Source: Lachnospiraceae bacterium (GTDB lineage: Bacteria; Bacillota; Clostridia; Lachnospirales; Lachnospiraceae). From it: 64,000 nt of DNA. A model generated the notes under the pieces. The model saw only the letters and a program-made list of their open reading frames with translations, was not told the DNA's origin and did not search any database. The stretch is taken from assembly GCA_024698345.1 (NCBI GenBank), contig JAILRH010000187.1:443-64442 (forward strand). Reading direction: 5' to 3'. Positions within the stretch are counted from its first letter, which is position 1. Every line of letters begins with the position of its first letter. The translations under genes were made by a program, and so were the position numbers. Below are positions 3,984 to 56,115 of the stretch, one piece after another.

Positions 3984-4021
3984 TTAGTTAGATAGTGTAT
4001 TATTTTTTAAATTTAAAAGAA

Positions 4022-4055: not shown

Positions 4056-4385
4056 ATGAAGAAAGGTTTGAAATTATATAATATTTATTTAGAAAAAGAG
4101 GAGGAAGTATTATTTCGTATCGGAAACTATGACAGCAACGGAAACACATATGTACAGATGATTGGAGCAGATGGAGAGCCTTACGGAGATCTTACTGTTA
4201 ATTTTGAAACATTGAATGACGAGAGAAAGGCTTATATTGATACAAATAATAATCCAGGTATCTTGAAGTTCATTGAAGATAACGAGTTGGGTTTTTGGTT
4301 TGGTCTTGAAAAACAGAGTAATTTTTGTACGTATCCTCTTTATTATTTGGATCTTGAGGAAATTAAAAAATATGTTGTTGAATAG
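4056..4385 (+). CDS. small hypothetical protein (about 109 aa)
   Basis: ORF-track start is 4047. ATG 4056 is preferred by analogy with the fixed 10-nt hairpin-to-AUG spacing at five other genes. Confidence 0.6.
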   Translation: MKKGLKLYNIYLEKEEEVLFRIGNYDSNGNTYVQMIGADGEPYGDLTVNFETLNDERKAYIDTNNNPGILKFIEDNELGFWFGLEKQSNFCTYPLYYLDLEEIKKYVVE

Positions 4386-4397
4386 GAGGAAATGCGA

Positions 4398-5744
4398 ATG
4401 TTATACAACGAAGACAGGCCCTTAAGTCTTGATGAGCTTAGAGGGCATGAGATAAATAAACAAATATTTAGAAGTCAGCTGAAAAATCAGAAGTTTGGAC
4501 ATGCCTATCTGTTTGCCGGACACCATGGCTCCGGTAAAACTACGGTGGCTAGAATTTTTGGACGTGCAGCAGTGTGTGAACATCCAACGGAGAATGGTCC
4601 TTGTATGGAGTGCGAAGCCTGTAAGAGATTTGGTTCATCAATTGACTTTGTTGAGATTGATGCAGCATCAAATACGGGTGTAGATGCCATAAGAGATAAG
4701 GTTATCGAAGCTGTTAAGTACAAGCCGGCAGAATTAAAAAAGAAAATAATTCTTATTGATGAGGTTCATATGCTTTCAACTAGTGCATTCAATGCATTGT
4801 TAAAGACAGTAGAAGAACCGCCGGAGAATGTAATTATTTTTCTTTGTACAACCGAGCTTAATAAAGTTCCAAAAACTATTGTTTCAAGGTGTCAGAAATT
4901 CATTTTCGAGGGGATTCCTCAAAATGAAATTGAAGATGGGGTTTTTGATTCGGCAAAAAAGCATGGAATTGATATTGAACCTGACGCAGTAAGGCTTATT
5001 GCTAAGATTGCTGATGGGTCAATGAGAGATGCTCTTTCTTTGTTGGAACAGGCTTCATCAAGCGGCACTGTTACAGAGTCAATGGTTGCTGAAATGACAG
5101 GCTATGGTTCGGCTATAGCAGTAGAGAGTATTCTTGATGGATATGTGAATGCTGATTACGATTTGATGTTTCAAGGTGTTGAAGAGTTCTTAAGAACGAG
5201 CAGTGTTAATACTCTTATTGAAGCTTTGATGGAAAAACTGATTGACAGAATTGTTACACATGATGGTGTCGATTACATTCCTTTAGTAAACGGATTGTCG
5301 GAAATTAAAGGAAAAAATGTTAGTCAGGCAGCAATTAAGGTGGTTTTATATAAGGTTGGCTGTGAGGAGTCTAAAATAGCTGCTCTTGAAAAGAGAGTGA
5401 GCGAACTTGAAGAAGCATTGAAGAACGGAGTTGTTATTAGCAGTGATAGTGCTGAGGTTGTGACAGAAGATGTTCCAAGCAAAGTAGCAAACGAAGGTGT
5501 AAATGACGTTTCTGGGGCAGAAAGTGAAGCCAAGGGAACAAATACACCGGATAAGGATGAACGTAGCGAAGATGAGCTGTTAGAGGCGCTTAATGCTGCG
5601 GGATTTAGTGATGTTACAGTAGCGGAAGAAAATCCTTTTGAGGAACCAGTAGAAGTACCTGTTGTAAAGGAAGAAAAGGTTGTAGAAAAGAAGAAAGAAC
5701 CTGAAACTAAATTTCCGGGTTTTTCTTCACCCTGGGATTGGTAG
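4398..5744 (+). CDS. dnaX: DNA polymerase III gamma/tau subunit
   Basis: Walker A GHHGSGKTT, zinc module CMECEACKRF, Walker B ILIDEVHML, sensor TIVSRCQKF, acidic/Lys-rich C-terminal tail. ATG 4398 is 8 nt from GGAGG; the ORF-track ATG 4392 is only 2 nt away. Confidence 0.9.
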   Translation: MLYNEDRPLSLDELRGHEINKQIFRSQLKNQKFGHAYLFAGHHGSGKTTVARIFGRAAVCEHPTENGPCMECEACKRFGSSIDFVEIDAASNTGVDAIRDKVIEAVKYKPAELKKKIILIDEVHMLSTSAFNALLKTVEEPPENVIIFLCTTELNKVPKTIVSRCQKFIFEGIPQNEIEDGVFDSAKKHGIDIEPDAVRLIAKIADGSMRDALSLLEQASSSGTVTESMVAEMTGYGSAIAVESILDGYVNADYDLMFQGVEEFLRTSSVNTLIEALMEKLIDRIVTHDGVDYIPLVNGLSEIKGKNVSQAAIKVVLYKVGCEESKIAALEKRVSELEEALKNGVVISSDSAEVVTEDVPSKVANEGVNDVSGAESEAKGTNTPDKDERSEDELLEALNAAGFSDVTVAEENPFEEPVEVPVVKEEKVVEKKKEPETKFPGFSSPWDW

Positions 5745-5766
5745 TCTAAAAGGCTACCAGGATAAG

Positions 5767-5952
5767 TTGGCTTTATTGGTTGAAGATGCGGCTTTCCTTA
5801 AGCCTTTGGTTAAAAGATTGCGATACAAACAAGATAAAGAAGGAAATATTCATATTTGTGCACGATACAGATGTGTTGCAGAGATGATTAATCTTTTTGA
5901 TGTTTCAGAAATCGGAATTGACAAAATCGAGGTTGATGAAAGCCTGTTTTGA
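5767..5952 (+). CDS. doubtful small ORF (61 aa, TTG start, no SD)
   Basis: Only an open frame with protein-like composition between dnaX and the next SD-hairpin element. Confidence 0.25.
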   Translation: MALLVEDAAFLKPLVKRLRYKQDKEGNIHICARYRCVAEMINLFDVSEIGIDKIEVDESLF

Positions 5953-5965
5953 TATTTGTAAGAAA

Positions 5966-6003
5966 GGAGGACGGAGATACATTTTGTATCTCCTATATTT
6001 ATT
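5966..6003 (+). promoter_or_regulatory. SD-hairpin-AUG translation-initiation element (3 of 6)
   Basis: GGAGG 5966-5970, 2 nt, stem GGAGATAC/GTATCTCC 5973-5993 (loop ATTTT), 10 nt TATATTTATT, ATG 6004. Confidence 0.55.
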
Positions 6004-6354
6004 ATGAGTTTAATGGATATTATTTTTGGTTTAATGGAAAAAGCAGTGAATGCATATCATCATTCAGTCTATGTCAGAACAGACGTGGGCGGTGCTTACG
6101 AAGTATTCTTCTGGTTTAGCTTAATTGCTTTTGAGTGTATTGGTTTTACATATCTTGATGGATTCAAGAAAAGAGATGAGGTCTGGACCGTAATCATTTG
6201 TGTGTTATGGTGGCCGGCTTTAATTATTGGATTTACATACAGGAAGGCTGTACATGCAGTACATGATGCTTTACTTAAGTATGTTACAAAGCGAAAGAGA
6301 AGAAATGTAAGAAAATACAGAAAGGTAGGAAGCAGAAGTTATGCTGGAGAATAA
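6004..6354 (+). CDS. small membrane protein with basic tail (116 aa)
   Basis: Two to three hydrophobic helices (FFWFSLIAFECIGFTYL, VIICVLWWPALIIGFTY) then KRKRRNVRKYRK. Confidence 0.55.
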   Translation: MSLMDIIFGLMEKAVNAYHHSVYVRTDVGGAYEVFFWFSLIAFECIGFTYLDGFKKRDEVWTVIICVLWWPALIIGFTYRKAVHAVHDALLKYVTKRKRRNVRKYRKVGSRSYAGE

Positions 6355-7393
6355 TTTTTATCAGAGTACACAGAATATAGCGAAGGCGGGTGCTTACTAT
6401 ACAGATCTTGCACATTGTGCAAGACTTTCACAGGCATTTAATTGGCCTGAAGGGGAAGTGTCCGTTTTAGAGCCTAGTGCTGGAGATGGTGCAGCAGTTA
6501 TTGAGATAACAAATAATTGCGACAAGCCTAAAATTTTTGCTGTTGAGCTTCGTACAGAAGCATTCAGAGAGCTGAAAAATAATAGCAATATAACATGTGC
6601 TATAAATTGTGATTTTTTACAGGCGAAAATTTCAAATAATGTGTTTTCGTTTATGTTTGCAAATCCACCATATATAAACGGTATGGACGGAAGAATGGAA
6701 GTAGAGTTTTTACAACGTTCGACAAGATATATCGCGGAGGATGGAATTATAGTGTATGTAGTTCCTTATTCAGTGGCTACCAGTCGTGAATACTTGAGCT
6801 TTTTGCTTAGAAATTACAAAGTGATTCATGCGTTTCGTTTTGATGAAGCAGAGTATGAGAAGTATAAGCAGATAGTATTTATTGCTAGGAAGGTAAAGAA
6901 TGAGGGAATAGAGGAAGAGCTTCAAAGATATATGGCAATGAGAAAAGAAGATTTTCCATTGATTCCGGAGGTTTGGACTGATGAATACGAACTTGTTGAT
7001 GTAGAAGAAAGCCCTGAAAGTAAAATAGTTTACTTTTCGTCAAAGGAATTCAATAGGGAGGAAGCTTTTATTGATTTGTGTGAATGTGAGCCTCAGAAGA
7101 AAAATTTGGATGCCTTGAGTATCAAAGCATTTTCTGCTAATGATATGGGACGTCCACCGGTAATGCCTAATCAGAATGTGTTGTATTTACTTTCGACACT
7201 CGGTTGTGGTTCGGGTATTACTGGATCAGAAGATAATATGGATATTCATTTACAGCGAGGTAATGCAAGAATATGCGAGTATTCATTTGAAGAGGTTAAC
7301 GAAAAGGGTAATGTTGAAGCTGTTACTCAGAGGAGTACTAAAGTATCTGTAACGATATTGGAAAATGACGGGACATTTACAGTGCTTGAATAA
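6341..7393 (+). CDS. N6-adenine DNA methyltransferase (orphan)
   Basis: Motif I VLEPSAGDGA and motif IV FANPPY; no restriction endonuclease gene adjacent. Confidence 0.8.
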   Translation: MLENNFYQSTQNIAKAGAYYTDLAHCARLSQAFNWPEGEVSVLEPSAGDGAAVIEITNNCDKPKIFAVELRTEAFRELKNNSNITCAINCDFLQAKISNNVFSFMFANPPYINGMDGRMEVEFLQRSTRYIAEDGIIVYVVPYSVATSREYLSFLLRNYKVIHAFRFDEAEYEKYKQIVFIARKVKNEGIEEELQRYMAMRKEDFPLIPEVWTDEYELVDVEESPESKIVYFSSKEFNREEAFIDLCECEPQKKNLDALSIKAFSANDMGRPPVMPNQNVLYLLSTLGCGSGITGSEDNMDIHLQRGNARICEYSFEEVNEKGNVEAVTQRSTKVSVTILENDGTFTVLE

Positions 7394-7407
7394 TAAATAT
7401 TAAAGAA

Positions 7408-7447
7408 GGAGGAAAGGAGTCGCATTTTGCGGCTCCTGATTTGTGAA
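7408..7447 (+). promoter_or_regulatory. SD-hairpin-AUG translation-initiation element (4 of 6)
   Basis: GGAGG 7408-7412, 3 nt, stem GGAGTCGC/GCGGCTCC 7416-7436 (loop ATTTT, one G-U), 11 nt, ATG 7448. Confidence 0.55.
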
Positions 7448-10400
7448 ATGGAATTTAGTATAGGGTTTCAGACGATTTCATTAGATTTTGCAGTGGTTGC
7501 GAACGAGAAAGGCTATGTATACTCAATTTTTGACAGATCCGCAATGATGGTAAGAAGCATGGCGGTTCAGGCATCATTCGATTCGGTAGCTATTGAAGGG
7601 AAAACCTATGGTGTTCCAAGAAATTCAGAAGGTGATAGTTACAAGACTAAAAGATACATTGAAAGGTTCGAAAGTGGTAGGGACAGAGTTTCATCAGCGC
7701 TTATAGTCAATGGAGCTATAGGTGAAAAAGTATTTTTGACTGATGATAAAGGTAAATATGATGATTTCTACAACTTTCTTATGAACAACTATACCTTACC
7801 GTTGCTTAAAGAGTGGTCGGGCTATCTTTATGATGGTCTTGTTCGTTCTTATTTTGTAAGTGAATACAGGAATGCTGTTATTGGTGAGAGACTTGAAAGA
7901 GAGATTACTCTTAATGGCAGAAATATTAGACTTGATGAAATGATTCTTGTTGATTGCAGCAGTCTTGATGAGGAATTTCTTAAGCGACAGGTAAGTACGG
8001 GACTTTCAAGTAAGAAGATTTGTATTACCGAGTTACCGGTTAAAAAACTTGAATTTGAAAATCTTGATGAGTATTACCAGAAGTATGGAAAGAATATCGT
8101 AGAAAACTTAGAAAGGGTTATCGATCCTTTGAATGAGATTGATGGCTATTGTCCGTATGTTGCTACAAAGTCGAAAAGACTTTTTCCGGCACAGGCTAAT
8201 GGTGTTAATGCTTATATTAAAAAGTTTGAAACATCAAATGGTGCCATAGCCAATATGGATATGGGTACTGGAAAAACACTGCAGGCGTTAACAACCTTTG
8301 ACGGCTTTTTTAATAAAAAGCAGATGAGTCAGGGGAAGACACTTAAACAGGTGATTGATGAAGATTGCGTTAATTATGTTGGTGCAGTCCTTTGTCCGTC
8401 GCATTTGGTTAGCAAATGGGTAAGTGAGGTCAGTGAATTGCCTAATGCTCACGCAGAAGCAGTTACTTCGTTGGCTCAGCTTATTAAGATTAACGAAAAC
8501 AGAAACTTATACAAAAAGGGAAAGCATATTTTTGTTTTCTCTAAAGATTTTGCAAAACTTGGGGATATGAGGGCGCCAATTCCTACTACGGTAAGTCGTG
8601 TGTTGAGAGCCCCTTATGTTCAGTATTGTGTTGATTGTCATAAGAATACTGGCAATTACAGGTACAGGCAGTTTGGTGACAGAGTATGTAGGCATTGTGG
8701 TGGAAATAATTGGAGAAAATCATTATCAAGAGAGGTGTCGGGTAATGCAGTTCTTTGTCCTCATTGTAATGAGGTTTTAATTAAGAACACAACTAAAAAG
8801 ATTGACAAAAACAGTTATCCGGAGATTCTTACTCCTGTTGATTTTTCAAGTGAAACTTCTGCTAACAGAAAATGTTACAACTGTTTAAATCCTCTTTGGG
8901 GAGCCCAGGTAAAAAATAAAGGAGACGGTTATAAATACAAGTGGAAAAAACTTGGATATTATACCAATAAAAGCCGAAAAGGAACGAGTACAGCTTGGAT
9001 TCTTGACGGTTTTAAGAGTAGCTTCATGTCAGTAAAGAACTTGAAAGAGGATGAAGTGTGGGAATCATCTAATATAGGTGTAAGAAAGTATTCGCCTGCA
9101 AGATATATTCAAAAACACATGAAAAACTTTTTTGACTTTTTTATTGCGGACGAAGCTCATATGTATGAATCATCATCTGCACAGGGACAGGCATTTGCTT
9201 CGCTTGCGAAAGTGTCAAAGAAGACTTTGGCACTTACAGGAACACTGACTAACGGTTATGCAAAAGGCTTGTTTTATCTGTTTTGGAGAATAATACCTCA
9301 GAAAATGGTTGATATGGGGTATGAATTTTATGGCAGAGATGGTGTAGGAAAGTGGAATTACACATATGGTGTTTTAGAGAAGAGAACTGAGTATACGGAA
9401 GAAGAACTTAAATACAATACTTCATCTCGCGGGAAAAAAGACTCTGGGATGTTTAAAGAAAGACCGGGTGTTTCACCGCGGCTTATGAAGGATTTTCTTT
9501 TAGAAGATGTAATTCAGTTACAGATTTCAGACTTGAGTGAGGGGCTGCCTGAACTTAAGGAAGAGATTGTGTCTGTTGAGCCTGAGAAAGAAGTAGTAAG
9601 TAGTCTTAATTCGCTTACGAATACACTTAAGAATTGGGCCAGCAATAATAAATGCCCTGCAATTAATATTGCAGCTTTAAGGTACCAGCTTTTTTATACC
9701 GATCAGCCGTATGACATACCACCAATATTAAGTCCTTTAACGAGGGGGGATATAGTAGCTGCACCGGATAATTATCCTGATTTGGTGGCAAATGGAGGTT
9801 TGTTAAAGAAGGAAATAAAACTTGTTGAAATCGTAAAGAAAGAGCTTGAGGAAGGAAGAAGATGTTATGTGTTTTTGGAAAATACAGGTAAATCGGAATT
9901 TTTCCTCTTAAAACGTATTAAAAAGGTTTTGGAAGAAAATGTTCCTTGTGCTAAGCCTCTCATTATGGAAGCCAATTCAACTTCTGCAAGTAAAAGAGAA
10001 GACTGGATGAAAAATAAGATTGAGAAGGAAAAGTACAATATTGTTATTTCTAACCCAAGACTTGTTGAAACAGGAATCGATTTTGTGTGGAAAGCAAAAA
10101 ACGGTGAGGGTTATAACATTCCAACAATTGTATTTTATCAGGTAGGTTGGTCGCTTGCTACTTTATGGCAGGCATCAAGAAGACACTACCGTTTGATACA
10201 GAAAGAACAGTGTCGTACATATTATATTGTGTGCGAAGGAACTATGCAGCTTGAATGTCTTCAGATGATGGCAGAAAAACAGGTTGCTGTGTCGGCCATT
10301 CAGGGCGGCGAGTTCTCATCAAGAGGACTTTCGTCTATGGCAAAAGGTGTTGACCCAAAGATTGAGCTGGCAAAAAGAATGCTCGCAGGTGAGCATTCAG

Positions 10401-10684
10401 ATGTGGATGATGTAAAGGAAATGTTTAAAAATATTTCCTTGAGTGGAAGCCGGTCATGGGATTGCAAACAGAATTTGTTGATTTCAGATATTACTACTAC
10501 TGTAGTAAAGACGGCAGAAAAACCAAGTTTGTTTGACGAATCTACATGGGGCGATGAATGGTTTGCATCGTTCTTTGGATCTATAAAAGAAGAATTTGAA
10601 AATGAAAAGAGTAAAAGCAAATCAAAGAAAAGAAAGGAGAAGAATAAACTCGAACAGTTAACACTCTTCGATTTATTCGAGTGA
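7448..10684 (+). CDS. SNF2-family helicase with zinc-ribbon insertions
   Basis: Motif I DMGTGKT, motif II FIADEAHMY, motif III LTGTLTNG, motif VI QASRRHYRLIQ. Four CxxC pairs (CVDCHK, CRHCGG, CPHCNE, CYNCLN). The ORF-track TTG 7427 lies inside the hairpin, so ATG 7448 is used. Confidence 0.85.
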   Translation: MEFSIGFQTISLDFAVVANEKGYVYSIFDRSAMMVRSMAVQASFDSVAIEGKTYGVPRNSEGDSYKTKRYIERFESGRDRVSSALIVNGAIGEKVFLTDDKGKYDDFYNFLMNNYTLPLLKEWSGYLYDGLVRSYFVSEYRNAVIGERLEREITLNGRNIRLDEMILVDCSSLDEEFLKRQVSTGLSSKKICITELPVKKLEFENLDEYYQKYGKNIVENLERVIDPLNEIDGYCPYVATKSKRLFPAQANGVNAYIKKFETSNGAIANMDMGTGKTLQALTTFDGFFNKKQMSQGKTLKQVIDEDCVNYVGAVLCPSHLVSKWVSEVSELPNAHAEAVTSLAQLIKINENRNLYKKGKHIFVFSKDFAKLGDMRAPIPTTVSRVLRAPYVQYCVDCHKNTGNYRYRQFGDRVCRHCGGNNWRKSLSREVSGNAVLCPHCNEVLIKNTTKKIDKNSYPEILTPVDFSSETSANRKCYNCLNPLWGAQVKNKGDGYKYKWKKLGYYTNKSRKGTSTAWILDGFKSSFMSVKNLKEDEVWESSNIGVRKYSPARYIQKHMKNFFDFFIADEAHMYESSSAQGQAFASLAKVSKKTLALTGTLTNGYAKGLFYLFWRIIPQKMVDMGYEFYGRDGVGKWNYTYGVLEKRTEYTEEELKYNTSSRGKKDSGMFKERPGVSPRLMKDFLLEDVIQLQISDLSEGLPELKEEIVSVEPEKEVVSSLNSLTNTLKNWASNNKCPAINIAALRYQLFYTDQPYDIPPILSPLTRGDIVAAPDNYPDLVANGGLLKKEIKLVEIVKKELEEGRRCYVFLENTGKSEFFLLKRIKKVLEENVPCAKPLIMEANSTSASKREDWMKNKIEKEKYNIVISNPRLVETGIDFVWKAKNGEGYNIPTIVFYQVGWSLATLWQASRRHYRLIQKEQCRTYYIVCEGTMQLECLQMMAEKQVAVSAIQGGEFSSRGLSSMAKGVDPKIELAKRMLAGEHSDVDDVKEMFKNISLSGSRSWDCKQNLLISDITTTVVKTAEKPSLFDESTWGDEWFASFFGSIKEEFENEKSKSKSKKRKEKNKLEQLTLFDLFE

Positions 10685-11847
10685 TTATTATGAAGATGAA
10701 GATGAATGATATGGTGAATGCAGTTAATAAAGTTTCAGTAACAAAGGCAGATATAACAATGAATTGTAAAGAAGGGGCGGTAATTCTTGCATCAACTGAT
10801 GTTGCATCTGGAATTGAGGTTCAGAGCAGATTTGGTGCAACAGATGTTAAAGAGGAAAAAGTCTTTTATCTCCCATGTTCAATCAAGGAAGGGCTTGTGG
10901 CTCTTTCTTCGGCTGGAGATGAAGTGGCAATTGAGGAACTTACAGGTTCAGTTAAATTTTTAGCAGGACAGGCGGATATTTCGGTTGGTAAGCTTGCAGA
11001 GCAGCCCGCAGGAATTCTTGTGGGTGAACCTTATGCAGCTTATCAGTTTTCCGGTAAAGAGTTTGTTAATGCGATGAATGTGATAAGCAGTGTTGCCAGA
11101 AAAGGCGGAGAAACATTTACATGCTGTTATTGCTTGATTAAAGGCGATACTTTGGAAGTGTTTGGTACTGATGGTAACAGAATGGTTAAGAACAAAATGA
11201 GAGTTTTGCAGCAGCAGATTAGAGATGATAAAGCATTTATTGATTCAACAGTTATTGTTTACGATAAGGATACGCAGAATCTTGGCTTTGCTATAGATCA
11301 TGAAATTTGGAAAAAAATTTCTTCTGCTTGCAGTCCTGAGTTTGTTCAGCTTTACGTTTGTGAAAAGCAGGTAAGACTTTCATGGAAAGACTCAGTTTTT
11401 GTATTGCCATTGTATGACACAGACAAATTAATATCTATAAATGGAGTTTGTGACTCTACATGTGAAGAAAAAGATGGTGATGTAGTGTTCGAACTGAATA
11501 TTGCTGACTTCTATAATGCAGTTAACATTGTATCAGTTGTCAATGAGGACAAGCGTGTATCTCTTAAGGCAAAAGGTAAAAATCTTACAGTTAAGTCATT
11601 GAATGGAAGTGCTAAGCTTGCTATTAATGATGTGGGCGAAGGATTTAGCGGTGATTATAATGTTGATTATTTGAAGGAACATCTTAGTTTTATAAAGTCA
11701 ACGGAAAAAACCGCAGTAAAGGTGGCCACTTCAAACAAATGTATGATTTCGTTAGATGCGTTATTAGATTATACTTATGGGTCTGATAATGGAGAAGTTG
11801 TGCAGCAGGTTGAAGTTGTGCAGGCTATTATGCCAGTAAAAGAATAA
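10681..11847 (+). CDS. dnaN: DNA polymerase III beta sliding clamp-like protein
   Basis: About 385 aa. LASTDVASG (cf. LTGTDLEME), VFGTDGNRMV (cf. VATDGHRLA), YNVDYLKEHL (cf. FNVSYVLDVL), C-terminal AIMPVKE (cf. VVMPMRL). GTG 10681 overlaps the upstream stop (GTGA); alternative ATG at 10690. Confidence 0.75.
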   Translation: MIIMKMKMNDMVNAVNKVSVTKADITMNCKEGAVILASTDVASGIEVQSRFGATDVKEEKVFYLPCSIKEGLVALSSAGDEVAIEELTGSVKFLAGQADISVGKLAEQPAGILVGEPYAAYQFSGKEFVNAMNVISSVARKGGETFTCCYCLIKGDTLEVFGTDGNRMVKNKMRVLQQQIRDDKAFIDSTVIVYDKDTQNLGFAIDHEIWKKISSACSPEFVQLYVCEKQVRLSWKDSVFVLPLYDTDKLISINGVCDSTCEEKDGDVVFELNIADFYNAVNIVSVVNEDKRVSLKAKGKNLTVKSLNGSAKLAINDVGEGFSGDYNVDYLKEHLSFIKSTEKTAVKVATSNKCMISLDALLDYTYGSDNGEVVQQVEVVQAIMPVKE

Positions 11848-11866
11848 GGCTTGTCAAGAAGTTAAT

Positions 11867-11902
11867 ATCACAGTTGTACATATTGTGCAACTGTGATACA
11901 AT
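11867..11902 (+). promoter_or_regulatory. promoter overlapped by 14-bp-arm palindromic operator
   Basis: ATCACAGTTGTACA (11867-11880) TAT TGTGCAACTGTGAT (11884-11897), one T-G mismatch. TTGTAC 11874-11879, 17 nt, TGaTACAAT 11894-11902. Confidence 0.5.
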
Positions 11903-11925
11903 ATAAAAAGAAAGGAGGAAAGCGT

Positions 11926-12351
11926 ATGGCAGAATTTTTTTCGGGACGCTGTGATGCGGAAACAAAAAGACGTTTTAGCGACTTGTTTGACGAAGAAGAG
12001 TTGTCTTTTGGCGATAAAATTAATATAATGCTTGACAGTTATGAAGAGTTGCATAAAAATCATCATCCTGATCCAATAGGTTTGAAAGTGTCTATGAATT
12101 CGATGAAGAGAAGTTTTGAAAATTCACTTCTTCAATTAGATGAAATGGAACGTTTGTATAATACTTTTGCAAATAAACTTTCAGATGTTGCTAATGTATC
12201 GGAGCTTAAGGCTGAGAATAAGGCTATAAAGTCCGAAAATGCAAAACTACGTCAGGAGTGCAATTCGCTTAAAAATGAATTAAAAAAATGTGAAGCAGAA
12301 TATAAAGATGCTGTACGTGCACTGATTTCGCTTGAGCAAAAGATTAAGTGA
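11926..12351 (+). CDS. coiled-coil protein, possible ribbon-helix-helix-like N-terminus
   Basis: ATG 11926 follows AAGGAGGA. The C-terminal two thirds are heptad-like (KAENKAIKSENAKLRQECNSLKNELKKCEAEYK). Confidence 0.55.
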   Translation: MAEFFSGRCDAETKRRFSDLFDEEELSFGDKINIMLDSYEELHKNHHPDPIGLKVSMNSMKRSFENSLLQLDEMERLYNTFANKLSDVANVSELKAENKAIKSENAKLRQECNSLKNELKKCEAEYKDAVRALISLEQKIK

Positions 12352-12372
12352 AACGGTGATTAGATAAAAATT

Positions 12373-12828
12373 ATGAATAAGGTTATTTTAATGGGTCGAT
12401 TAACTAGAGACCCTGAAATTAGATATTCTCAGTCGGGAGATGGCCAGTTGGCAATTGCCAGATATACATTAGCCGTTGACCGCAGATTTAAAAGAGATGG
12501 TGATCAGCAGACAGCAGATTTCATTTCATGTATTGCATTTGGCAAACAGGGAGAATTTGCTGAGAAGTACTTACATCAGGGAACAAAGATGGTTGTCGAG
12601 GGAAGAATCCAGACAGGCAACTATACAAATAAAGAAGGCCAAAAAGTATATACAACAGATGTTGTGGTTGAAAACTCGGAATTTGCAGAGAGTAAAGCTT
12701 CAGCATCGAGTGTTGGAGTAAGTGTAGGTTTTAAGGGACAGACACCTCCGCAGCCAACATCAAATGTTGGTGATGGCTTCATGAATATACCAGATGGTGT
12801 AGAGGACGAAGGATTACCTTTCAATTAA
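12373..12828 (+). CDS. ssb: single-stranded DNA-binding protein
   Basis: MNKVILMGRLTRDPEIRY OB-fold start, Gly/Pro/Gln-rich linker, acidic tail DEGLPFN. Confidence 0.9.
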   Translation: MNKVILMGRLTRDPEIRYSQSGDGQLAIARYTLAVDRRFKRDGDQQTADFISCIAFGKQGEFAEKYLHQGTKMVVEGRIQTGNYTNKEGQKVYTTDVVVENSEFAESKASASSVGVSVGFKGQTPPQPTSNVGDGFMNIPDGVEDEGLPFN

Positions 12829-12834
12829 TAATTA

Positions 12835-12860
12835 GCCTCGCATTTGCGGGGCTTTTTTTT
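12835..12860 (+). terminator. intrinsic terminator after ssb
   Basis: GCCTCGC ATTT GCGGGGC stem-loop followed by T8. Confidence 0.8.
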
Positions 12861-12863
12861 ATG

Positions 12864-12872
12864 TGGTATAAT
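12864..12872 (+). promoter_or_regulatory. candidate extended -10 for cas12a
   Basis: TGgTATAAT immediately after the ssb terminator; -35-like TTGCGG lies in the terminator stem 17 nt upstream. Confidence 0.4.
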
Positions 12873-12921: not shown

Positions 12922-15900
12922 ATGGGGAGTAATCTTGATCTTTTTAGGAATAGAACAATACAAACAAAAACGATTTGTCAAAAATTAATCCCAATGGGTA
13001 AAACGAGGGAAACAATTGAAAAATACAATCTTATGGAAATTGACAGAAAAATAGCAGAAAATAAGGAACTGATGAACAAGCTGTTCAGTCTTATAGCAGG
13101 CAAGCATATAAATGATACACTTGCTAAATGTACTGATTTGAATTTTATTCCAATATTTGAGGGAATTACGGCACTAAATCAAGCAAAAGAGAACAATAGA
13201 GATAATTTGAGAGATTACTATGATACTGTTTTCGAAGCGAGAAAAAGTGTAGCAGAAGAAATTTCATCAAGATTAATAGAGTTGAAGTTTGCGGGAAAAG
13301 ATTTCTTCACTAAGATTATTCCTGATTTCTTGGAAAAATATAATGGTAAAGATAAAAATGAAATGAGTGAACTTGTATCGTTAGTAGTTGAAAATACCGC
13401 AACTGCTGGGTATGTAAAAAAACTCGAGAAAATAGATAATTCAATGGGTGTAAAATTGGTATCTGGGACAGTTGTAAAGAGGGTATTGACGGATAATACA
13501 GATATTTACGAAAAAAATATTGCACATACTAGAAATTTTGACTATGGAGTATTGCAAATTGAAGAATCAACTCAGTTTATGACTTTAGATTGGAAAGATT
13601 ATTCAAATTATATAACAGCTGATGGAATAGCTTTATATAATGCCATTATTGGAAAAATCAACCTTGCACTTAATGAATACTGCCAAAAGAATAAGGAATA
13701 TTCTTTTAATAAGTTGGCTCTTTTACCATTGCAAAAGATGTTGTACGGAGAAAAAACGAGTCTTTTTGAAAAATTGGAAGATTTTAGCTCTGATGATGAA
13801 CTTATAAACGCATATAACTCATTTATAAAAACAGTAAATGATTGTAAAATTGCTGAGAATATCAAAAAGACCATACCTTCTTATGATGAAATTATGATTA
13901 AGACTAACAAAATCAATTATTATTCTAATGTTATTACTGGTCAATGGTCAGCTGTTAATAGAGCCATGAAAGACTTTTTGGAAGATAATGGAATTAAAAA
14001 TGCCGATAAATATATGGAAAAAGGACTTACAGCATCAGAAATAGAAGATGCTTTGGAACATAAGAATATTAAACACACAGATTTTATATCAAATCTTATT
14101 ACAGATTTAGGTCATACTTATGCAGAAATTAAAGAAAATAAGGAATCGCTGAAAAAAGATGATTCCTTAAATTCAGTAATAATAAAAAAAGAATTGGATA
14201 AGTTGCTTTCAGTATTGCAAAACTTAAAGGTATTGGATGTGGATAATGAGATTTTTGATACAGGTTTTGGAATTGAGGTTTCTAAAACAATTGAAGTTTT
14301 GGGATTTGGTGTTCCTCTGTACAATAAAATTAGAAATTATATTACAAGGAAACCTGATCCAAAGAAAAAGTTTTTGACAAAATTTGGTTCAGCAACTATT
14401 GGAACAGGTTTAACAACAAGTGTTGAGGGTTCAAAAAGGGCAACGTTCATAAAAGATGGTGATGCTGTATTTCTTCTCTTATATAACGGCTATGGATGTA
14501 AAGCAAACAATATATCTGTAAGCAACCTTGCTGCGATTATTAATTCCGAACTTAGAGATACTAATAATGGCAATTCATATCAGAAGATGATATATCAGAC
14601 ACCTGGGGATATTAAAAAACAGATTCCAAGAGTGTTCGTTTACAAGTCTGAGGATGAAGAGTTGATTAAAGACTTCAAAGCAAAACTTCATAAAACGGAT
14701 TTATCATTTTTAAATGAAAGATTAATCCCTTATCTTAAAGAAGCCTTCGCAAATCATGAAACTTATAAGAATTATAAATTTAGCTATAAAAACAGTTATG
14801 AGTCATATGATGAATTTTGTGAGCATATGTCAGAACAGGCATATATCCTTGAATGGCAATGGATTGACAAGAAACTAATTGATGACTTGGTTGAAGATGG
14901 CTCTCTTTTGATGTTCAGAGTATGGAATAGATTTATGAAGAAAAAGGACGGGAAAATAAGCAAACATGCTAAAATTATAAACGAGCTTTTCTCTGAGAGA
15001 AACACATCAAATGCAGCAATTAAGCTGTTAAGTGTGTTTGATATTTTCTATCGAGATAAACAGATTGATAATCCTATCGTACATAAGGCTGGTTCTACTC
15101 TTTATAACAAGAGATCGAAGGACGGAGAAGTAATCTCTGATTATTCTTCAATGGTTAAGAATAAAGAAAAAAGAGAAAACGTTTATACTACAACTAAAAA
15201 GTACGATATAATCAAAGATAGAAGATATACTGAAGAGCAATTTGAATTACATATCCATGTTCAACTTGGAAAAGAAGAGAATAAAGAGATCCTTGAAACT
15301 TCAAAACTTATAAACGAAAAAAAGAATACTTTAGTAGTGACAAGAAGTAATGAGCATTTGCTTTATGCAGTAGTGTTTGACGAAAATGATAATATTCTTC
15401 TCAAAAAATCATTAAATACAGTTAAGGGTATGAACTTTAAATCAAAACTTGAAGCAGTAGAGATTCAGAAAAAGGAAAATATGCAGAGCTGGAAGACAGT
15501 TGGCAGTAATCATGCATTAATGGAAGGTTATCTTTCTTTCGCAATAAAGGAAATTGCTGATTTGATTAAGGAATATGATGCAATTCTTGTTTTAGAACAG
15601 AATTCTATTGGTAAAAATCTTCTTAACGAGCGTGTTTATACAAGATTTAAGGAGATGCTTCTTACTAACTTGTCATTGGATATAGATTACGTGAACAATG
15701 ACTTTTATTCATATACGGAAGTTGGGCAAAAGGTTAGTTCTTGGAGAGATTCTGTAACTAATGGAATCTGTATTCAGGTACCATCTGCTTATAAGTATAA
15801 GGACCCGACAACTACTTATTCTCCGGTAAGTATGTATGCAAAAACAACAGCAGAAAAAACTAAAAAACTCAAGCAAATCAAATCATTTAAGTATAATCGA

Positions 15901-16335
15901 GAAAAAGGTTTGTTTGAATTGGTTATTGCAAAAGGAGTAGGGCTTGAGAATAACATTGTATGTGATTCCTTTGGAGCAAGAAGTACTATTGAGAATGATA
16001 TCGCCAAAGAAGTAAACTGCACCATTAAGATTGAAAAATATCTCATTGATGCAGGTATCGAATACAATGATGAAGGGGAAATACTGAAAGAACTTGATAC
16101 TGCAACAAAGACAGATGCAGTTCATAAGGCGATATCTTTATTATTAAAGTGCTTTAATGACGAAGCAGGTGGAAGATATTACATATCGCCTTGTGGAGAA
16201 CACTTTACTTTATATGATACCCCTGAAGTATTATCTGCAATCAACTATTACATACGAAGTCAATACATAAGGAGACAGATTGTAGAAGGTGTAAAAAAAG
16301 TAGACTACAAGAAAATAATTCTACTTGCAGGATAA
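12922..16335 (+). CDS. cas12a: Cas12a (Cpf1)-family type V-A effector with substituted RuvC-I/Nuc residues
   Basis: ATG 12922 lies 5 nt after GGAGG. KTICQKLIPMGKT N-terminus; WED His/Lys/Lys triad region; RuvC-II AILVLEQ. RuvC-I reads LVVTRSNEHLLY instead of IGIDRGERNLLY. A canonical Cas12a-type repeat array follows immediately downstream. Confidence 0.9.
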   Translation: MGSNLDLFRNRTIQTKTICQKLIPMGKTRETIEKYNLMEIDRKIAENKELMNKLFSLIAGKHINDTLAKCTDLNFIPIFEGITALNQAKENNRDNLRDYYDTVFEARKSVAEEISSRLIELKFAGKDFFTKIIPDFLEKYNGKDKNEMSELVSLVVENTATAGYVKKLEKIDNSMGVKLVSGTVVKRVLTDNTDIYEKNIAHTRNFDYGVLQIEESTQFMTLDWKDYSNYITADGIALYNAIIGKINLALNEYCQKNKEYSFNKLALLPLQKMLYGEKTSLFEKLEDFSSDDELINAYNSFIKTVNDCKIAENIKKTIPSYDEIMIKTNKINYYSNVITGQWSAVNRAMKDFLEDNGIKNADKYMEKGLTASEIEDALEHKNIKHTDFISNLITDLGHTYAEIKENKESLKKDDSLNSVIIKKELDKLLSVLQNLKVLDVDNEIFDTGFGIEVSKTIEVLGFGVPLYNKIRNYITRKPDPKKKFLTKFGSATIGTGLTTSVEGSKRATFIKDGDAVFLLLYNGYGCKANNISVSNLAAIINSELRDTNNGNSYQKMIYQTPGDIKKQIPRVFVYKSEDEELIKDFKAKLHKTDLSFLNERLIPYLKEAFANHETYKNYKFSYKNSYESYDEFCEHMSEQAYILEWQWIDKKLIDDLVEDGSLLMFRVWNRFMKKKDGKISKHAKIINELFSERNTSNAAIKLLSVFDIFYRDKQIDNPIVHKAGSTLYNKRSKDGEVISDYSSMVKNKEKRENVYTTTKKYDIIKDRRYTEEQFELHIHVQLGKEENKEILETSKLINEKKNTLVVTRSNEHLLYAVVFDENDNILLKKSLNTVKGMNFKSKLEAVEIQKKENMQSWKTVGSNHALMEGYLSFAIKEIADLIKEYDAILVLEQNSIGKNLLNERVYTRFKEMLLTNLSLDIDYVNNDFYSYTEVGQKVSSWRDSVTNGICIQVPSAYKYKDPTTTYSPVSMYAKTTAEKTKKLKQIKSFKYNREKGLFELVIAKGVGLENNIVCDSFGARSTIENDIAKEVNCTIKIEKYLIDAGIEYNDEGEILKELDTATKTDAVHKAISLLLKCFNDEAGGRYYISPCGEHFTLYDTPEVLSAINYYIRSQYIRRQIVEGVKKVDYKKIILLAG

Positions 16336-16449
16336 ACAATCCTCAGTCTTGATGAGGGAGGAATAGAATTGTATATGTTAAAATGTACAAGTATGAGCTT
16401 TATTGATTATTAGATGATGTAATATTTTGTGCATTTTGACAATATACGA

Positions 16450-16917
16450 GTTAAATTAATAATAAATGTCTACTATACTGTAGATAACTATATTGTTAGG
16501 TATATTGCGTCGTTAAATTAATAATAAATGTCTACTATACTGTAGATAGAGATATGGTTGTGCATAGTATTTCAGTTAAATTAATAATAAATGTCTACTA
16601 TACTGTAGATCTGCTTAGGTCTGTTGCAAATGCAAGAGTTAAATTAATAATAAATGTCTACTATACTGTAGATTTATCCATTGTTAAGTTCTTAATAAAC
16701 TTAAATTAATAATAAATGTCTACTATACTGTAGATTGATAGCAGTTTCCACTGTTTTCTGCGTTGAATTAATAATAAATGTCTACTATACCGTAGATTCG
16801 ATTTGCTTAGACCATCAATAGAGAGTTAAATTAATAATAAATGTCTACTATGGTGTAGATAACTGATAGAGAAAGAGTGAAACAGACTTAAATAAAAATG
16901 TCTATCATAGCATAGTT
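16450..16917 (+). CRISPR. type V-A CRISPR array, 7 spacers
   Basis: 36-nt repeat GTTAAATTAATAATAAATGTCTACTATACTGTAGAT at 16450, 16512, 16575, 16638, 16700, 16762 and 16825, plus a truncated degenerate copy at 16887-16917. Spacers are 26-27 nt. The repeat 3' end forms the Cas12a handle UCUAC-loop-GUAGA-U. Confidence 0.95.
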
Positions 16918-16994: not shown

Positions 16995-17154
16995 TTGCCA
17001 TTTTTTGTCATATGTGTTAAACTACAACTGTGTATTAAAAGTTACACGTTTTATTTTTCGTTTGAACAGAATAGGGTATATTATTAAAAGACTGTTTTTC
17101 GATGGTCTTTGTTTTTATGAGCGGAGTCGGAACAAATATGCTGACTCCGCTTTT
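16995..17154 (+). promoter_or_regulatory. promoter plus three-hairpin leader ahead of the T4SS operon (diverged copy C)
   Basis: TTGCCA 16995-17000, 17 nt, TGtTAAACT 17015-17023. Hairpins GTGTA/TACAC 17030-17047 and AAAGAC/GTCTTT 17087-17110. Terminator GCGGAGTC/GACTCCGC 17121-17150 plus TTTT, then ATGCCC box, SD, ATG 17181. Confidence 0.5.
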
Positions 17155-29003: not shown

Positions 29004-31781
29004 ATGATTAGAGTTCTTTTTAGTTTTGGTGATAAAACTATAAAGGATGCGATTGAAGATGCTCTTATCCGCAAGAACGTTCAGTTTGAGAGTGTTGTTG
29101 CGGAATCCAAGCTTGAGTTTTTCAAGATAATAACTCAAAGCGAGGATATTGATTGTGCAGTTATAATGGAAGGCTGCGCAGATGAGTCTAGTTGGACGAG
29201 TAGGGAATTATCTCGATTAGCAGATGGACGAGATGTCAACATCGTTCCAATTCTTACAGAAGAGCATGAGGAAGGTAGTGATTACCTTCAAGAACTGTAC
29301 GCATCCGGTATTATGTCAGCGCTGATTGGGGGCGTTAGACCATCAGAGGTAGCGGAGATGATTGTTAATCCGCGTGAGAGGAAGGATGCGAAGAGATATT
29401 ATGGATTAAGTCCATACAGTTGCATCAATAATAAGGGGATTGAGAAAAAAAGGGTAGACAGAATGCTTGCATACATCACAGGGGTTGACGAGCCTAAGCA
29501 GATGGCAGAAAGGTTCGACGATGTGTGTTTTGAGCTTAATAGAGAGCAAATAGAATTTGTTCTTAAAAGGTGCAATGCAAATATCAAAAATGCTCTTAAA
29601 TATTCTAACATTTACACCAATCTTAACAGTAAAAAAACTAAATATAGAGATATTATTGAAGTTCCAGAATTCAAACATGAATGCTCGGAGTCTATTAATG
29701 TTGTGTACGGATTCGATAATGATGGTCTAGTCGATAAACTAGAGGAGTTGATTACCTCTAATGGAAGAACCGTTAAGAGTGATAAAAGATACACCAAAAA
29801 GGGTATCCTTAATATGCTATCTCAGGATCCAACTATTAATACCGTTATTGTGGTAGAGAACCTTGAACGTCAGGGAGCATATAAGGTTGAAGAATTAATC
29901 GACATCAAAGAAGAGTACGGAGTTAATCTTATCGTATTCTTGACGGAGGATAAGGTTGGAAGTGAGTATATCAACAAGTTGTACTGTGCCGGTATCTATA
30001 CGGCTACTCCGGGACAGAGAAGATTTGATTACATATATGACCTGGTCATTAATGGCAGGACAAGGCAACAAGCTAGAGAATGTTATGGGTTAGACTTCGG
30101 AGGCAAATGCGGAACAAAATTACCAGTTAAATACAAAAAAAGTATTGTGCAATTTTTAGAACTTAAAGATGGTGACTTTTACAACCGCGTTTCGTTCCTG
30201 TCAAGATTAATTAAAGACGAAGAAGTTAAGGACGTATTGGATTATCTTCCGGCAGAACTAAAGGAAAAAGTTGATGATACGGAAATCTTCTTATCAGAAC
30301 AAGAAAAAAAGAAAAGACACAAAAAAAGAGAAAAAGAGGCTAAAAAAACTCAAAAAAGCAAAAAGAATTCTGTAGTAGAAGAATCTGTTAGGGAAGAAGT
30401 TGTTGCAGAAGAATCTGTACATGCAGAAGAAACTCTTAAAACAGCAAAACCATTCATATCTGATTTTAAAAGTGATTCCGTTGTTGATGATAGTACAGCA
30501 GAAGATGTTGTGACAGAAAAGGTGGATATAAGTGATGGTAATGCTGCGAGCGATGAGTTCGAAGGTATTATTCTTCCAGATAGCATGAAAGATCTCATAG
30601 AAAATAACGAAAAGGCAGATGATACAGAAAAGGAATCTTCAATAAAAGAAAGCGATATTAAAGAATTAGTTACAGAGACTAATTCCAGTCCTCAAGAAGA
30701 AGCTACTAAAAATGTAACGGAAGCAGTAGAAGAGCCTATGGTTGAGGTAAAAGCGGATGATAGCTCTGATTATAAAGAAGAAAAAATTATTGCTAAACCT
30801 CAAAAGGTTCAAAGTGCAGAACCTAAACAAAATAAAAAGCCTAAAGTAAGCAAAAAAACAAAGTTAAAAGCTCCAAGTGTTGATTTGGCAAGTGTTGCGA
30901 ATAAGATTACGCATATAAATAAGAAGATTTTGATATCAAGCATAGTAGCTGTATTATTACTTGTAGTCGGTATTGGATTCTTCAGTAGACGAGCAAAGGT
31001 AGGAGAGCCTGAGAGTCTATATGCTGGTGAGAATGTTGTAATGCAGGGTGTAGGTGCTGAAGACTTGGCAGAAGGCGAAGAAGGAAGGCTTGGAGAGATT
31101 GACTTGGCAGCAGAGGAGACCACAGAAGAAGAACTGGCTGTAATTGAGTCAGTGGATATGACAGAAGAACAGACGGAAGAACTGACAGAGGAATTGACTG
31201 AGGAGCAAACTACTGAAGAAACAACTACTCAGGTAGAAACTACAAGTCGTATTAAGAAAAAGAAGAAAAAGAAAGTTGAACAAACAACTAATAATAATGA
31301 AATCTCAACCGTTGCCCCAACAACAAGAACTGAAAAGCAGACAAAGAAAAAAGAAAAAGCAACAAAGCCTAAAAAAGAAAAAACAACTAAGCCAAAAGTT
31401 GTAAACACAGTTCCTAAGCAAAGTGAAAACACAGGTGGTTTGGACAGAAGCAGTGTCAACTTAATTAAAAACACTATAATGAGTAACTTCTTAGGCTCGT
31501 ACAACGGAAACATGGAAAATCTTGCTAGATATATGGCTAATAACGGAAATTCTGATGCACAAGGATGTATTAATAGGCTATGTCAGAATACAACTTTAAA
31601 GGTCAGTGGTAATATTGCAACTGTAACTGCGAATTCGGATAATTCTGAAGATATACTTGCGGCCGCTTCGAAATTGGCTGACTCTCTAGCTGGTTCAGGA
31701 ACATATGGAGTCGGTATTTGTGTTCATGAACAGAATGGTAAGTATAAAATAACAGCAGCAATAGCTGTTCAGATGAATTAG
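29004..31781 (+). CDS. 925-aa single-pass membrane protein with two N-terminal receiver-like repeats and long K/E/T-rich low-complexity tracts
   Basis: Internal repeat IRVLFSFGDKTIKDAIEDAL...YLQELYASGIMSA versus INVVYGFDNDGLVDKLEELI...YINKLYCAGIYTA. TM ILISSIVAVLLLVVGIGFF. TEEQTEELTEELTEEQTTEETTT and KKKKKK tracts. Confidence 0.5.
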   Translation: MIRVLFSFGDKTIKDAIEDALIRKNVQFESVVAESKLEFFKIITQSEDIDCAVIMEGCADESSWTSRELSRLADGRDVNIVPILTEEHEEGSDYLQELYASGIMSALIGGVRPSEVAEMIVNPRERKDAKRYYGLSPYSCINNKGIEKKRVDRMLAYITGVDEPKQMAERFDDVCFELNREQIEFVLKRCNANIKNALKYSNIYTNLNSKKTKYRDIIEVPEFKHECSESINVVYGFDNDGLVDKLEELITSNGRTVKSDKRYTKKGILNMLSQDPTINTVIVVENLERQGAYKVEELIDIKEEYGVNLIVFLTEDKVGSEYINKLYCAGIYTATPGQRRFDYIYDLVINGRTRQQARECYGLDFGGKCGTKLPVKYKKSIVQFLELKDGDFYNRVSFLSRLIKDEEVKDVLDYLPAELKEKVDDTEIFLSEQEKKKRHKKREKEAKKTQKSKKNSVVEESVREEVVAEESVHAEETLKTAKPFISDFKSDSVVDDSTAEDVVTEKVDISDGNAASDEFEGIILPDSMKDLIENNEKADDTEKESSIKESDIKELVTETNSSPQEEATKNVTEAVEEPMVEVKADDSSDYKEEKIIAKPQKVQSAEPKQNKKPKVSKKTKLKAPSVDLASVANKITHINKKILISSIVAVLLLVVGIGFFSRRAKVGEPESLYAGENVVMQGVGAEDLAEGEEGRLGEIDLAAEETTEEELAVIESVDMTEEQTEELTEELTEEQTTEETTTQVETTSRIKKKKKKKVEQTTNNNEISTVAPTTRTEKQTKKKEKATKPKKEKTTKPKVVNTVPKQSENTGGLDRSSVNLIKNTIMSNFLGSYNGNMENLARYMANNGNSDAQGCINRLCQNTTLKVSGNIATVTANSDNSEDILAAASKLADSLAGSGTYGVGICVHEQNGKYKITAAIAVQMN

Positions 31782-54257: not shown

Positions 54258-54273
54258 ATTATAAAAATAAAAA

Positions 54274-56109: not shown

Positions 56110-56115
56110 TAGAAA

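Follow-up and report, generated by a model that had tools for sequence, protein, structure and literature searches.

Organization of the cas12a-like locus

The 64,000-nt stretch analysed here (hereafter the window; positions 443 to 64,442 of the forward strand of contig JAILRH010000187.1, GenBank assembly GCA_024698345.1, from a Lachnospiraceae bacterium) contains a gene for a Cas12a-like protein of 1137 amino acids (aa), followed directly by a CRISPR array (Table 1). The protein is a Cas12a homologue in which several residues of the nuclease centre are replaced, and the gene and array form a module that is carried on a conjugative plasmid or element.

The array is of type V-A style, is read in the + direction and has the leader on the side facing cas12a. 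It comprises seven complete repeats of 36 nt, GTTAAATTAATAATAAATGTCTACTATACTGTAGAT, which start at positions 16450, 16512, 16575, 16638, 16700, 16762 and 16825 and span 16450–16860; spacers 1 to 7 are 26, 27, 27, 26, 26, 27 and 26 nt long. Repeats 1–4 are identical, while repeat 5 carries the substitution G1C, repeat 6 A4G and T30C, and repeat 7 A28G/C29G. Repeat decay increases with distance from cas12a, the leader-proximal copies being identical, and none of the changes in repeats 5–7 touches the stem of the predicted fold (GUCUAC/GUAGAU, with the 6-nt loop UAUACU). An initial annotation, made by reading the sequence, had described seven 36-nt repeats with a truncated eighth, spacers of 26–27 nt, the same substitutions in repeats 5–8 and a preserved handle stem with a 6-nt loop, and all of these were reproduced. 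The predicted mature handle of the CRISPR RNA (crRNA) comprises the last 21 nt of each repeat, AAUGUCUACUAUACUGUAGAU. The motif TCTAC-N(3–8)-GTAGA occurs seven times in the window, always inside the array (mean in shuffled sequences, 0.15), and this handle-motif scan revealed no solitary repeats outside the array in the 64 kb. Rfam contained no family for the region.

The array itself begins at 16450; position 16336, the start given in the initial annotation, is where the leader begins. Across the clade of related loci described below, the final 25 nt of this leader are conserved and include TTGTGCA at −23 to −17 from repeat 1. The leader also contains a promoter-like site, consisting of TTGACA at 16436, a 16-nt spacer and AATAAT ending at 16463, which agrees with 11 of 12 consensus positions and is the best consensus match of the region. 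The array promoter proposed in the initial annotation thus corresponds to a real site, but the accompanying claim that it would leave an intact first handle does not hold: a start 6–8 nt past AATAAT would lie at 16469–16471, at the first bases of the stem, so that the AAUG 5' tail of handle 1 would be missing. A hairpin, CCTCAGTCTTGATGAGG, is situated at 16341–16357; its core, GTCTTAATG, is conserved across the clade 5–20 nt past the cas12a-like stop codon (also at loci L002, L004, L029, L030 and L040). This hairpin is not a + strand terminator, and no + strand terminator was found between the cas12a stop codon and repeat 1.

Translation of the cas12a-like gene most likely starts at ATG 12922, rather than at TTG 12910 or at ATG 12994, the choice of a gene caller; the upstream codons encode the conserved TKTICQKLIP strand. 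The promoter-like box at 12864–12872 was not listed by the consensus scan because it lacks a −35 match. Downstream of the array, VirB2/TrbC-type pilin genes begin at 17181, and the type IV secretion system (T4SS)-type genes of the window code for VirB2-like pilins, a VirB4-like ATPase and a lysozyme/NlpC-P60 hydrolase. The flanks had accordingly been assigned correctly, with ssb upstream and T4SS genes downstream. Searches with PADLOC and Pfam confirmed that Cas1, Cas2 and Cas4 families are absent from the 62 + strand open reading frames (ORFs) of at least 60 aa in the window; the same Pfam search detected Cas4, Cas1 and Cas2 in a canonical V-A locus (L024) that served as positive control. The window covers 64,000 of the 64,675 bp reported for its contig. 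To call the array an orphan, as the initial annotation did, is misleading, because its own effector gene lies 114 nt upstream.

Table 1. Features of the cas12a-like locus and of putative target sites in the window
Feature	Position	Strand	Remarks
ssb	12373–12828	+	Upstream neighbour of the cas12a-array unit
Intrinsic terminator of ssb	12834–12853	+	8-bp stem with 6 G-C pairs, then TTTTTTTT; delimits the cas12a-array unit on its upstream side
Extended −10 promoter-like box, TGGTATAAT	12864–12872	+	Perfect match, read by eye from the sequence; putative promoter
cas12a-like gene	12922–16335	+	1137 aa; ATG behind GGAGG ribosome-binding site
Leader	16336–16449	+	114 nt; TTGTGCA 16427–16433; TTGACA 16436–16441 with AATAAT 16458–16463; hairpin motif 16341–16357
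Repeats and spacers 1–7	16450–16886	+	7 repeats, 7 spacers
Spacer 5, TGATAGCAGTTTCCACTGTTTTCTGC	16736–16761	+	Antisense to cas12a-like coding sequence
Degenerate terminal (eighth) repeat	16887–16917	+	31 nt; shortened, several changes
Terminator-like hairpin followed by UUUUAU	17119–17152	+	−21.2 kcal/mol, z-score −3.84; between array and first T4SS pilin gene
Protospacer-like site for L002 spacer 6	29418–29443	−	Inside 925-aa ORF 29004–31781 (T4SS region); 5' TTTC

A Cas12a homologue without nuclease residues

The effector encoded in the window scored 326.9 bits against TIGR04330 (cutoff, 300), matched 26 Cas12a chains in the PDB at E ≤3e-36 (best, Lb2Cas12a, 8h9d, 2e-52) and was recognized by the Cas12a models of PADLOC at 1.6e-115. 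The alignments discussed in the following were computed, and the correspondence of their catalytic and processing positions to residue numbers of the As, Fn and Lb enzymes is presumed. At the position of the RuvC-I Asp the window effector has Thr: VVTRSNEHLLY aligns with the canonical IGIDRGERNLLY, IGIDRGE becoming VVTRSNE, in agreement between phmmer and MAFFT. The RuvC-II Glu is retained (ILVLEQN), PEVLSAINY, in which Glu occupies the Asp position, stands in place of the RuvC-III motif DADANGAYN, and the Nuc-domain Arg of QxRNS, which we take to be R1226 of AsCas12a, needed for target-strand cleavage, is Phe. The WED-domain His/Lys/Lys, with which Cas12a cleaves its pre-crRNA, are present (IVHKAG, NKR, IKDRRY). 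As a reference set we used the 144 Cas12a-like cluster representatives of at least 1050 aa nearest to this protein and its clade. In 102 of the 144, the catalytic pattern is D-E-D, as compared to T-E-E in the window protein and T/G-E-E throughout the six clade representatives; the Nuc residue is F, F, F, N, Y and Y across the six clade members and R in 114 of the 144 representatives.

Single RuvC-I Asp-to-Ala changes abolish DNA cleavage in the As, Fn and Lb Cas12a proteins, and the combination of replacements suggests that the DNase activity of the window effector has been lost. These residue losses had not been mentioned in the initial annotation, which had left the choice between silencing and interference to the spacers; given these losses, that question is answered mainly by the protein and not by the spacers. 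An ordinary V-A interference system, in which the protein would still cleave DNA by means of a rearranged active site and cas4-cas1-cas2 would simply have been lost, is unlikely. Conservation of the RuvC-II Glu and of an acidic residue at the RuvC-III position would fit such a system, as would the TIGR04330 score above cutoff and the name under which NCBI lists clade members ("type V CRISPR-associated protein Cas12a/Cpf1", Eubacterium sp.), but the RuvC-I Asp, whose change alone abolishes cleavage in the characterized enzymes, is Thr or Gly in six of six clusters with no conserved acidic residue nearby, the Nuc Arg is F, Y or N, and DANGAY is gone.

In the LPK/IPR motif, all six clade members have Arg, and 94 of the 144 Cas12a-like proteins have Lys. 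We presume this Lys to be the one that contacts the protospacer adjacent motif (PAM; As K607/Lb K595) and whose change to Arg alters PAM preference in engineered variants; since Arg takes its place, the PAM specificity of the clade may differ from TTTV.

Loss of the catalytic triad was also observed outside the clade. The DED triad is missing from 42 of the 144 nearest representatives, P0005, P0011, P0014, P0015 and P0033 among them, and in nearly all of these it is the RuvC-I Asp that has been lost. Asn (14) and Thr (9) are its most common replacements; Lys, Ser, His, Cys, Ile, Arg, Val and Gly come next. Among Cas12a-like proteins, natural loss at RuvC-I may be much commoner than a single clade implies. 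Considering also that clade members are labelled plainly as Cas12a/Cpf1, surveys that count Cas12a genes as nucleases may overestimate the number of cutting systems.

Related loci and their mobile context

A word-index search yielded two close relatives only, P0002 (84% identity) and P0003 (56% identity), to which an exhaustive profile search added P0008, P0009 and P0010; members of the clade scored 709–783 bits, as compared to ≤292 bits for canonical Cas12a. The clade comprises six sequence clusters, and all six, down to less than 50% identity, show the same residue pattern, namely T or G at RuvC-I, the RuvC-II Glu, loss of the RuvC-III motif, a non-Arg Nuc residue and the WED His/Lys/Lys. 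From genome contigs, a scan recovered the L002 contig alone; a scan of metagenome contigs found canonical Cas12a only (24–37% identity), and tblastn searches detected only two canonical Butyrivibrio Cas12a genes in plasmids and none in phages.

At every locus of the clade an array is located 114–243 nt past the effector stop codon. It comprises 11 repeats in L002 (a 206-kb contig of a Lachnospiraceae metagenome-assembled genome), 8 in L029, and 5, 4 and 2 in L030, L042 and L037, respectively; L040 contains a 19-unit array (13504–14645), and the arrays of L004 and L028 run into the contig end. Cas1, Cas2 and Cas4 Pfam families were found at none of the loci L001–L004, L028–L031, L037 and L040–L043, with up to 10 kb inspected on each side.

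The conjugative plasmids or elements that carry members of the clade have been assigned to Lachnospiraceae or Eubacterium. Gene order in L030 and L042 is that of the window, with genes coding for a clamp-loader-like protein, a DUF6094 methyltransferase, a single-stranded DNA-binding protein (SSB), an SNF2 protein and a protein of about 390 aa, followed by the module and the T4SS genes. Two further relatives are syntenic and lack the module at the same position: in L039 (5867–7301) the T4SS genes follow the gene for the ~390-aa protein after 274 nt, and in L032 (2567–7644) several small ORFs follow it. The gene and the array are therefore accessory cargo, and these two relatives offer empty sites by which its boundaries may be delimited. 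In L002 and L029 the module adjoins resolvases, and in L040 it is inserted between TraG and Rep3/ParA on an element of about 80.25 kb that was recovered at equal length from several samples.

Selection on the gene and on the crRNA handle

The cas12a-like gene is under purifying selection. The ratio of nonsynonymous to synonymous substitution rates (dN/dS) is 0.079 at dS 1.2 for the window versus L002, and 0.25 for L030 versus L037. Constraint extends over all 1137 aa, with the PAM-interacting and REC regions among them. The handle is likewise conserved: its six-pair helix is 95.8% paired across 12 distinct handles, with two pairs altered on both sides (U-A to C-G and A-U to G-C), and the loop varies freely between 4 and 8 nt, even within one array. 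In L040, the 19 repeats diverge in their 5' half and in the loop (6–8 nt) around an invariant stem, and the 3–4 nt before the stem (AAU, then G, U or A) are 80–100% conserved. The conserved stretch has the exact extent of a mature Cas12a handle and stops exactly where the cut is expected, 4 nt 5' of the stem. Three of the "spacers" of L040 are just 12–15 nt long. Judged by these sequences, the L040 array looks like an old guide cluster maintained by selection on the handle alone.

The intact reading frames throughout, dN/dS of 0.08 at dS 1.2 and a residue pattern that is constant over six clusters are difficult to reconcile with a captured V-A locus that is being lost and has no present function. 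Degenerate distal repeats, lost catalytic residues and absent adaptation genes might be expected of such a relic, but handles conserved with compensatory changes and the turnover of spacers described below are not; the relic reading is already disfavoured by the data, and we regard it as highly improbable.

Selection also bears on the possibility that the array is a donor of guides, feeding crRNAs to an active host Cas12a that cleaves rival elements, with the plasmid protein acting as a processing RNase only. The WED RNase residues are kept, the stem is identical to the canonical UCUAC/GUAGA, and Cas12a orthologues tolerate different handle loops. Such a role would nevertheless require a host Cas12a, and the purifying selection on the REC and PAM-interacting regions goes beyond the needs of processing; the covaried stem CCUAC/GUAGG of L030, moreover, points to co-evolution of the handle with the clade's own protein. 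A mere guide donor is thus improbable.

Spacer turnover and adaptation in trans

The flanking DNA of L030 and L042 is 98.2–98.9% identical, and that of L037 and L030 is 96–98.5% identical, yet the arrays of L030, L042 and L037, which contain four, three and one spacers, respectively, have no spacer in common; their terminal repeat and tail are identical. The proteins of L004 and L040 are at least 90% identical (one 90% cluster), and the two arrays nevertheless differ at the leader end. Because near-identical backbones share no spacers, and because leader-proximal repeats are identical and distal ones decayed, spacers evidently turn over. The repeat pattern of the window is in its sequence that of acquisition at the leader end, not that of a frozen guide set. 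In view of this turnover among 96–99% identical backbones, the initial annotation's proposal of an array kept for expression and not for acquisition is not supported; its alternative, that host adaptation is borrowed in trans, fits better.

A canonical human-gut V-A locus (cas12a-cas4-cas1-cas2-leader-array) has TTGTGCA at identical spacing, suggesting that a host V-A adaptation module could use the leader of the window in trans. Together, the turnover of spacers and the shared leader motif favour acquisition in trans over a frozen array. The absence of adaptation genes is ordinary for plasmid-borne CRISPR: adaptation genes accompany 36% of plasmid CRISPR systems as compared to 88% of chromosomal ones, and host machinery acting in trans is the accepted explanation for plasmid CRISPR without them (PMC9071438).

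Candidate spacer targets

The 51 spacers of the clade (7 from the window, 44 from relatives) were compared with 561 kb of related loci. Spacer 6 of L002 matches a site in the window (Table 1) at 23 of 26 positions; the 21 PAM-distal matches are contiguous, and positions 2, 3 and 5 are mismatched. For the 925-aa ORF that contains this site, no Pfam family was found, and the word-index search of the 5.8-billion-protein index returned only the protein itself. The second candidate is spacer 5 of the window, which matches the cas12a-like gene of L002 at 21 of 26 positions, including a perfect 8-nt PAM-proximal stretch, next to TTTC. At the homologous sites of other loci, the same spacer matches at 19 of 26 positions in L040 (TTTT, 11-nt perfect PAM-proximal run), 19 of 26 in L004 (TTTT) and 18 of 26 in L028 (TTTC), as compared to 15 of 26 (CTTC) in the window's own cas12a-like gene (14557–14582). 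Read in frame, the reverse complement of spacer 5 encodes AENSGNCY, which is intermediate between the peptides of P0002 (IENSRNCY) and of the window protein (NNGNSY); of its five mismatches to L002, two are synonymous changes at third positions. Because of this intermediate peptide and the synonymous mismatches, spacer 5 looks like a copy from the cas12a-like gene of an unsampled relative. Inspection for a T-rich 5' PAM, as suggested in the initial annotation, revealed TTTC in front of both candidate protospacers; these are two imperfect sites only. An apparent excess of weak hits (≥17/22) was dismissed as chance, since the 43 real hits compare with 43.6 in shuffles.

Regulation of the module or its surroundings by its own spacers was considered and rejected: the best self-matches in the window reach 18 of 26–27 positions, and no site combines TTTV with a seed match. 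No spacer thus targets the window, in line with the initial annotation, although the longest exact self-match outside the array measures 12 nt, not the 11 nt given there. These data, together with the differing spacers of near-identical backbones, which a fixed circuit would not tolerate, make it distinctly unlikely that the locus is a domesticated RNA-guided regulator of genes of the element or the host in the manner of TldR or Cas12m, even though a predicted DNase-less effector with a short array between an SSB/methylase/SNF2 block and a T4SS operon would suit that role.

Another alternative is anti-CRISPR mimicry, in which dead Cas12a and the repeat transcript would sequester the crRNAs of a host V-A system or compete with it, so that the plasmid is protected and the spacers are incidental. 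The handle is close to canonical V-A handles, the leader resembles that of a canonical gut V-A locus, and there are precedents in repeat-mimicking RNA anti-CRISPRs (PMC10651486) and in a phage-encoded RuvC-inactive Cas9 beside an SNF2 helicase (PMC10910872); an SNF2 gene is present in the window at 7427–10684. However, relatives that lack the module have this gene as well, neither the turnover of spacers at a conserved leader nor purifying selection on the whole protein would be required of a decoy, and two spacers have PAM-flanked matches on rival elements. We therefore regard mimicry as rather unlikely.

Proposed function of the module

On balance, the locus probably represents a plasmid-borne natural nuclease-dead Cas12a (dCas12a), which would act by nuclease-free crRNA-guided binding, mainly against competing conjugative elements, with guides renewed in trans. 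The cas12a-like gene and the array would constitute a self-contained two-part module, the cargo of a conjugative element, and would be transcribed from their own promoter, through the gene into the array. The WED RNase site is predicted to cut the transcript 4 nt upstream of each hairpin, giving crRNAs with the 21-nt handle. The effector would then bind DNA with a T-rich PAM without cutting it, and its occupancy could block transcription, replication or establishment of the target. Targets would be competing conjugative plasmids of the same community, including a rival's own cas12a-like gene, and a type V-A Cas4-Cas1-Cas2 of the host would insert new spacers at the leader end. More tentatively, and in our view possible though short of probable, the clade as a whole may form a natural dCas12a lineage, a two-part cassette on conjugative plasmids of gut and rumen Clostridia that borrows the Cas4-Cas1-Cas2 of its hosts and serves inter-plasmid warfare, including CRISPR against CRISPR.

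Several observations weigh against this interpretation. Its weakest part is the targets: only 2 of about 51 spacers have a candidate, and these imperfect matches, with 3 and 5 mismatches, are both to related elements. Among 40 shuffled sets, one contained a hit with ≤3 mismatches and two contained at least two hits with ≤5 mismatches plus TTTV, which corresponds to a modest support of about 0.03–0.05. At either candidate site, pairing of the crRNA would involve the coding (non-template) strand within an ORF, which in CRISPR interference (CRISPRi) with engineered dCas12a is the weaker orientation for blocking elongation. The comparison with plasmid and phage databases proposed in the initial annotation gave no match for the seven window spacers in PLSDB or INPHARED at E up to 10, and exact 20-mers of all seven were absent from IMG/VR. 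The 21-mer common to L002 spacer 6 and the window was likewise absent from IMG/VR; the 44 spacers of relatives gave one chance 23-nt hit in PLSDB (E = 2), which shows that the search is able to report short matches, and none in phages. As to the protein, the RuvC-II Glu and the Glu at the RuvC-III position are kept in all clade members and may leave residual or altered catalysis, and an AlphaFold2 model of the effector (predicted local distance difference test, 62.6; predicted template modelling score, 0.39) was too poor for inspection of the active site and was not used. Finally, the compatible V-A adaptation module of the host is so far a postulate.

Comparison with known systems and implications

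By descent, the effector belongs to the Cas12a family; on sequence grounds, the locus would work like type IV-A3 or Cas12m, and of the features of type V-A it lacks an active RuvC triad and the adaptation module. It shares with canonical V-A systems (LbCas12a, Lb2Cas12a, FnCas12a and AsCas12a) homology over the full protein length, the 36-nt repeat, the 3' UCUAC-loop-GUAGA handle, the WED RNase residues, an array downstream of the gene with the leader in between, and the leader motif; the two candidate protospacers also have a T-rich sequence on their 5' side. No tracrRNA-like element was seen, although no search aimed at one was made. Unlike these, it has lost the RuvC-I Asp, the Nuc Arg and the RuvC-III motif, encodes a protein that is about 100–150 aa shorter, lacks cas4-cas1-cas2, shows a freely varying loop within its clade, is carried on a conjugative element and has Arg in place of the presumed PAM-contacting Lys.

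Type IV-A3 systems are plasmid-borne, have neither an adaptation module nor a nuclease, receive host-updated spacers in trans, act by crRNA-guided repression and take part in plasmid conflicts (Benz et al., 10.1101/2023.06.23.546257). They are the closest functional analogue of the window module, as far as the function of the latter can be predicted from its sequence. They differ in that their effector is an unrelated class 1 multi-subunit complex with a DinG helicase, whereas the window encodes a single Cas12a-derived protein with no dedicated helicase partner.

Within type V, V-M (Cas12m), V-C (Cas12c) and V-B3 (Cas12b3) are described as single effectors that interfere by binding without cleaving target DNA (PMC12669027; PMC11013384), and the 2025 classification lists repeated RuvC inactivation in V-C, V-M, V-O, V-P and V-B3, with Cas12b3 located on an Actinomyces conjugative plasmid with a mini-array (PMC12669027). 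Cas12m, Cas12c and Cas12b3 belong to other Cas12 lineages than the window effector, and Cas12c keeps RuvC for crRNA processing, whereas the window effector keeps a separate WED RNase site. No inactivated V-A variant is named in the searched sections of that classification (PMC12669027), and no natural RuvC-inactivated V-A branch with a retained array, a retained crRNA-processing site and strong purifying selection was found in the literature searched, although one may have been published elsewhere. The RNA anti-CRISPRs (Racrs) or solitary repeat units (PMC10651486) are similar in that V-A-like repeats are located on a mobile element; the window differs from them by a full multi-spacer array, a leader, an effector gene of its own and the lack of solitary repeats. 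In contrast to type V-K (Cas12k) transposons, the window has no TnsB, TnsC or TniQ among its Pfam hits; Cas12k moreover represents another lineage and needs a tracrRNA.

Few CRISPR nucleases have been studied as well or used as widely as Cas12a. If the proposed function is correct, the V-A lineage would join type IV and a few small Cas12 types, for which binding-only inter-plasmid interference has been shown so far. The module would stand beside type IV systems as a class 2 counterpart, and its array would be a likely second example of plasmid guides renewed in trans by host machinery. The clade could then provide natural dCas12a scaffolds tuned by evolution, with self-processing arrays, for multiplexed gene repression (CRISPRi).

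Neighbouring genes

Upstream of the module, the window encodes a DarA_C domain fused to a clamp-loader delta'-like ATPase (2913–3983), a DnaX-like clamp-loader ATPase (4392–5744), a DUF6094 methyltransferase (6341–7393) and the SNF2 helicase (7427–10684), followed by SSB. The genes in the region 2913–12828 resemble what we take to be plasmid leading-region or anti-restriction genes. With its SNF2 neighbour, the module is reminiscent of the RuvC-inactive Cas9 that is paired with SNF2 in a phage (PMC10910872); as mentioned above, SNF2 is also present in relatives without the module. At about 53550–59000, a ubiquitin-like conjugation module comprises Prok-E2_D (53550–54257) and a Prok-JAB domain in 54307–56109; a ThiF/E1 match was found among the ORFs of the window, and PADLOC reported E1-E2 and mad2 matches as well. 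All 62 retained ORFs are encoded on the + strand, and the GC skew is positive throughout (0.14–0.36), with no switch in 1–64000.

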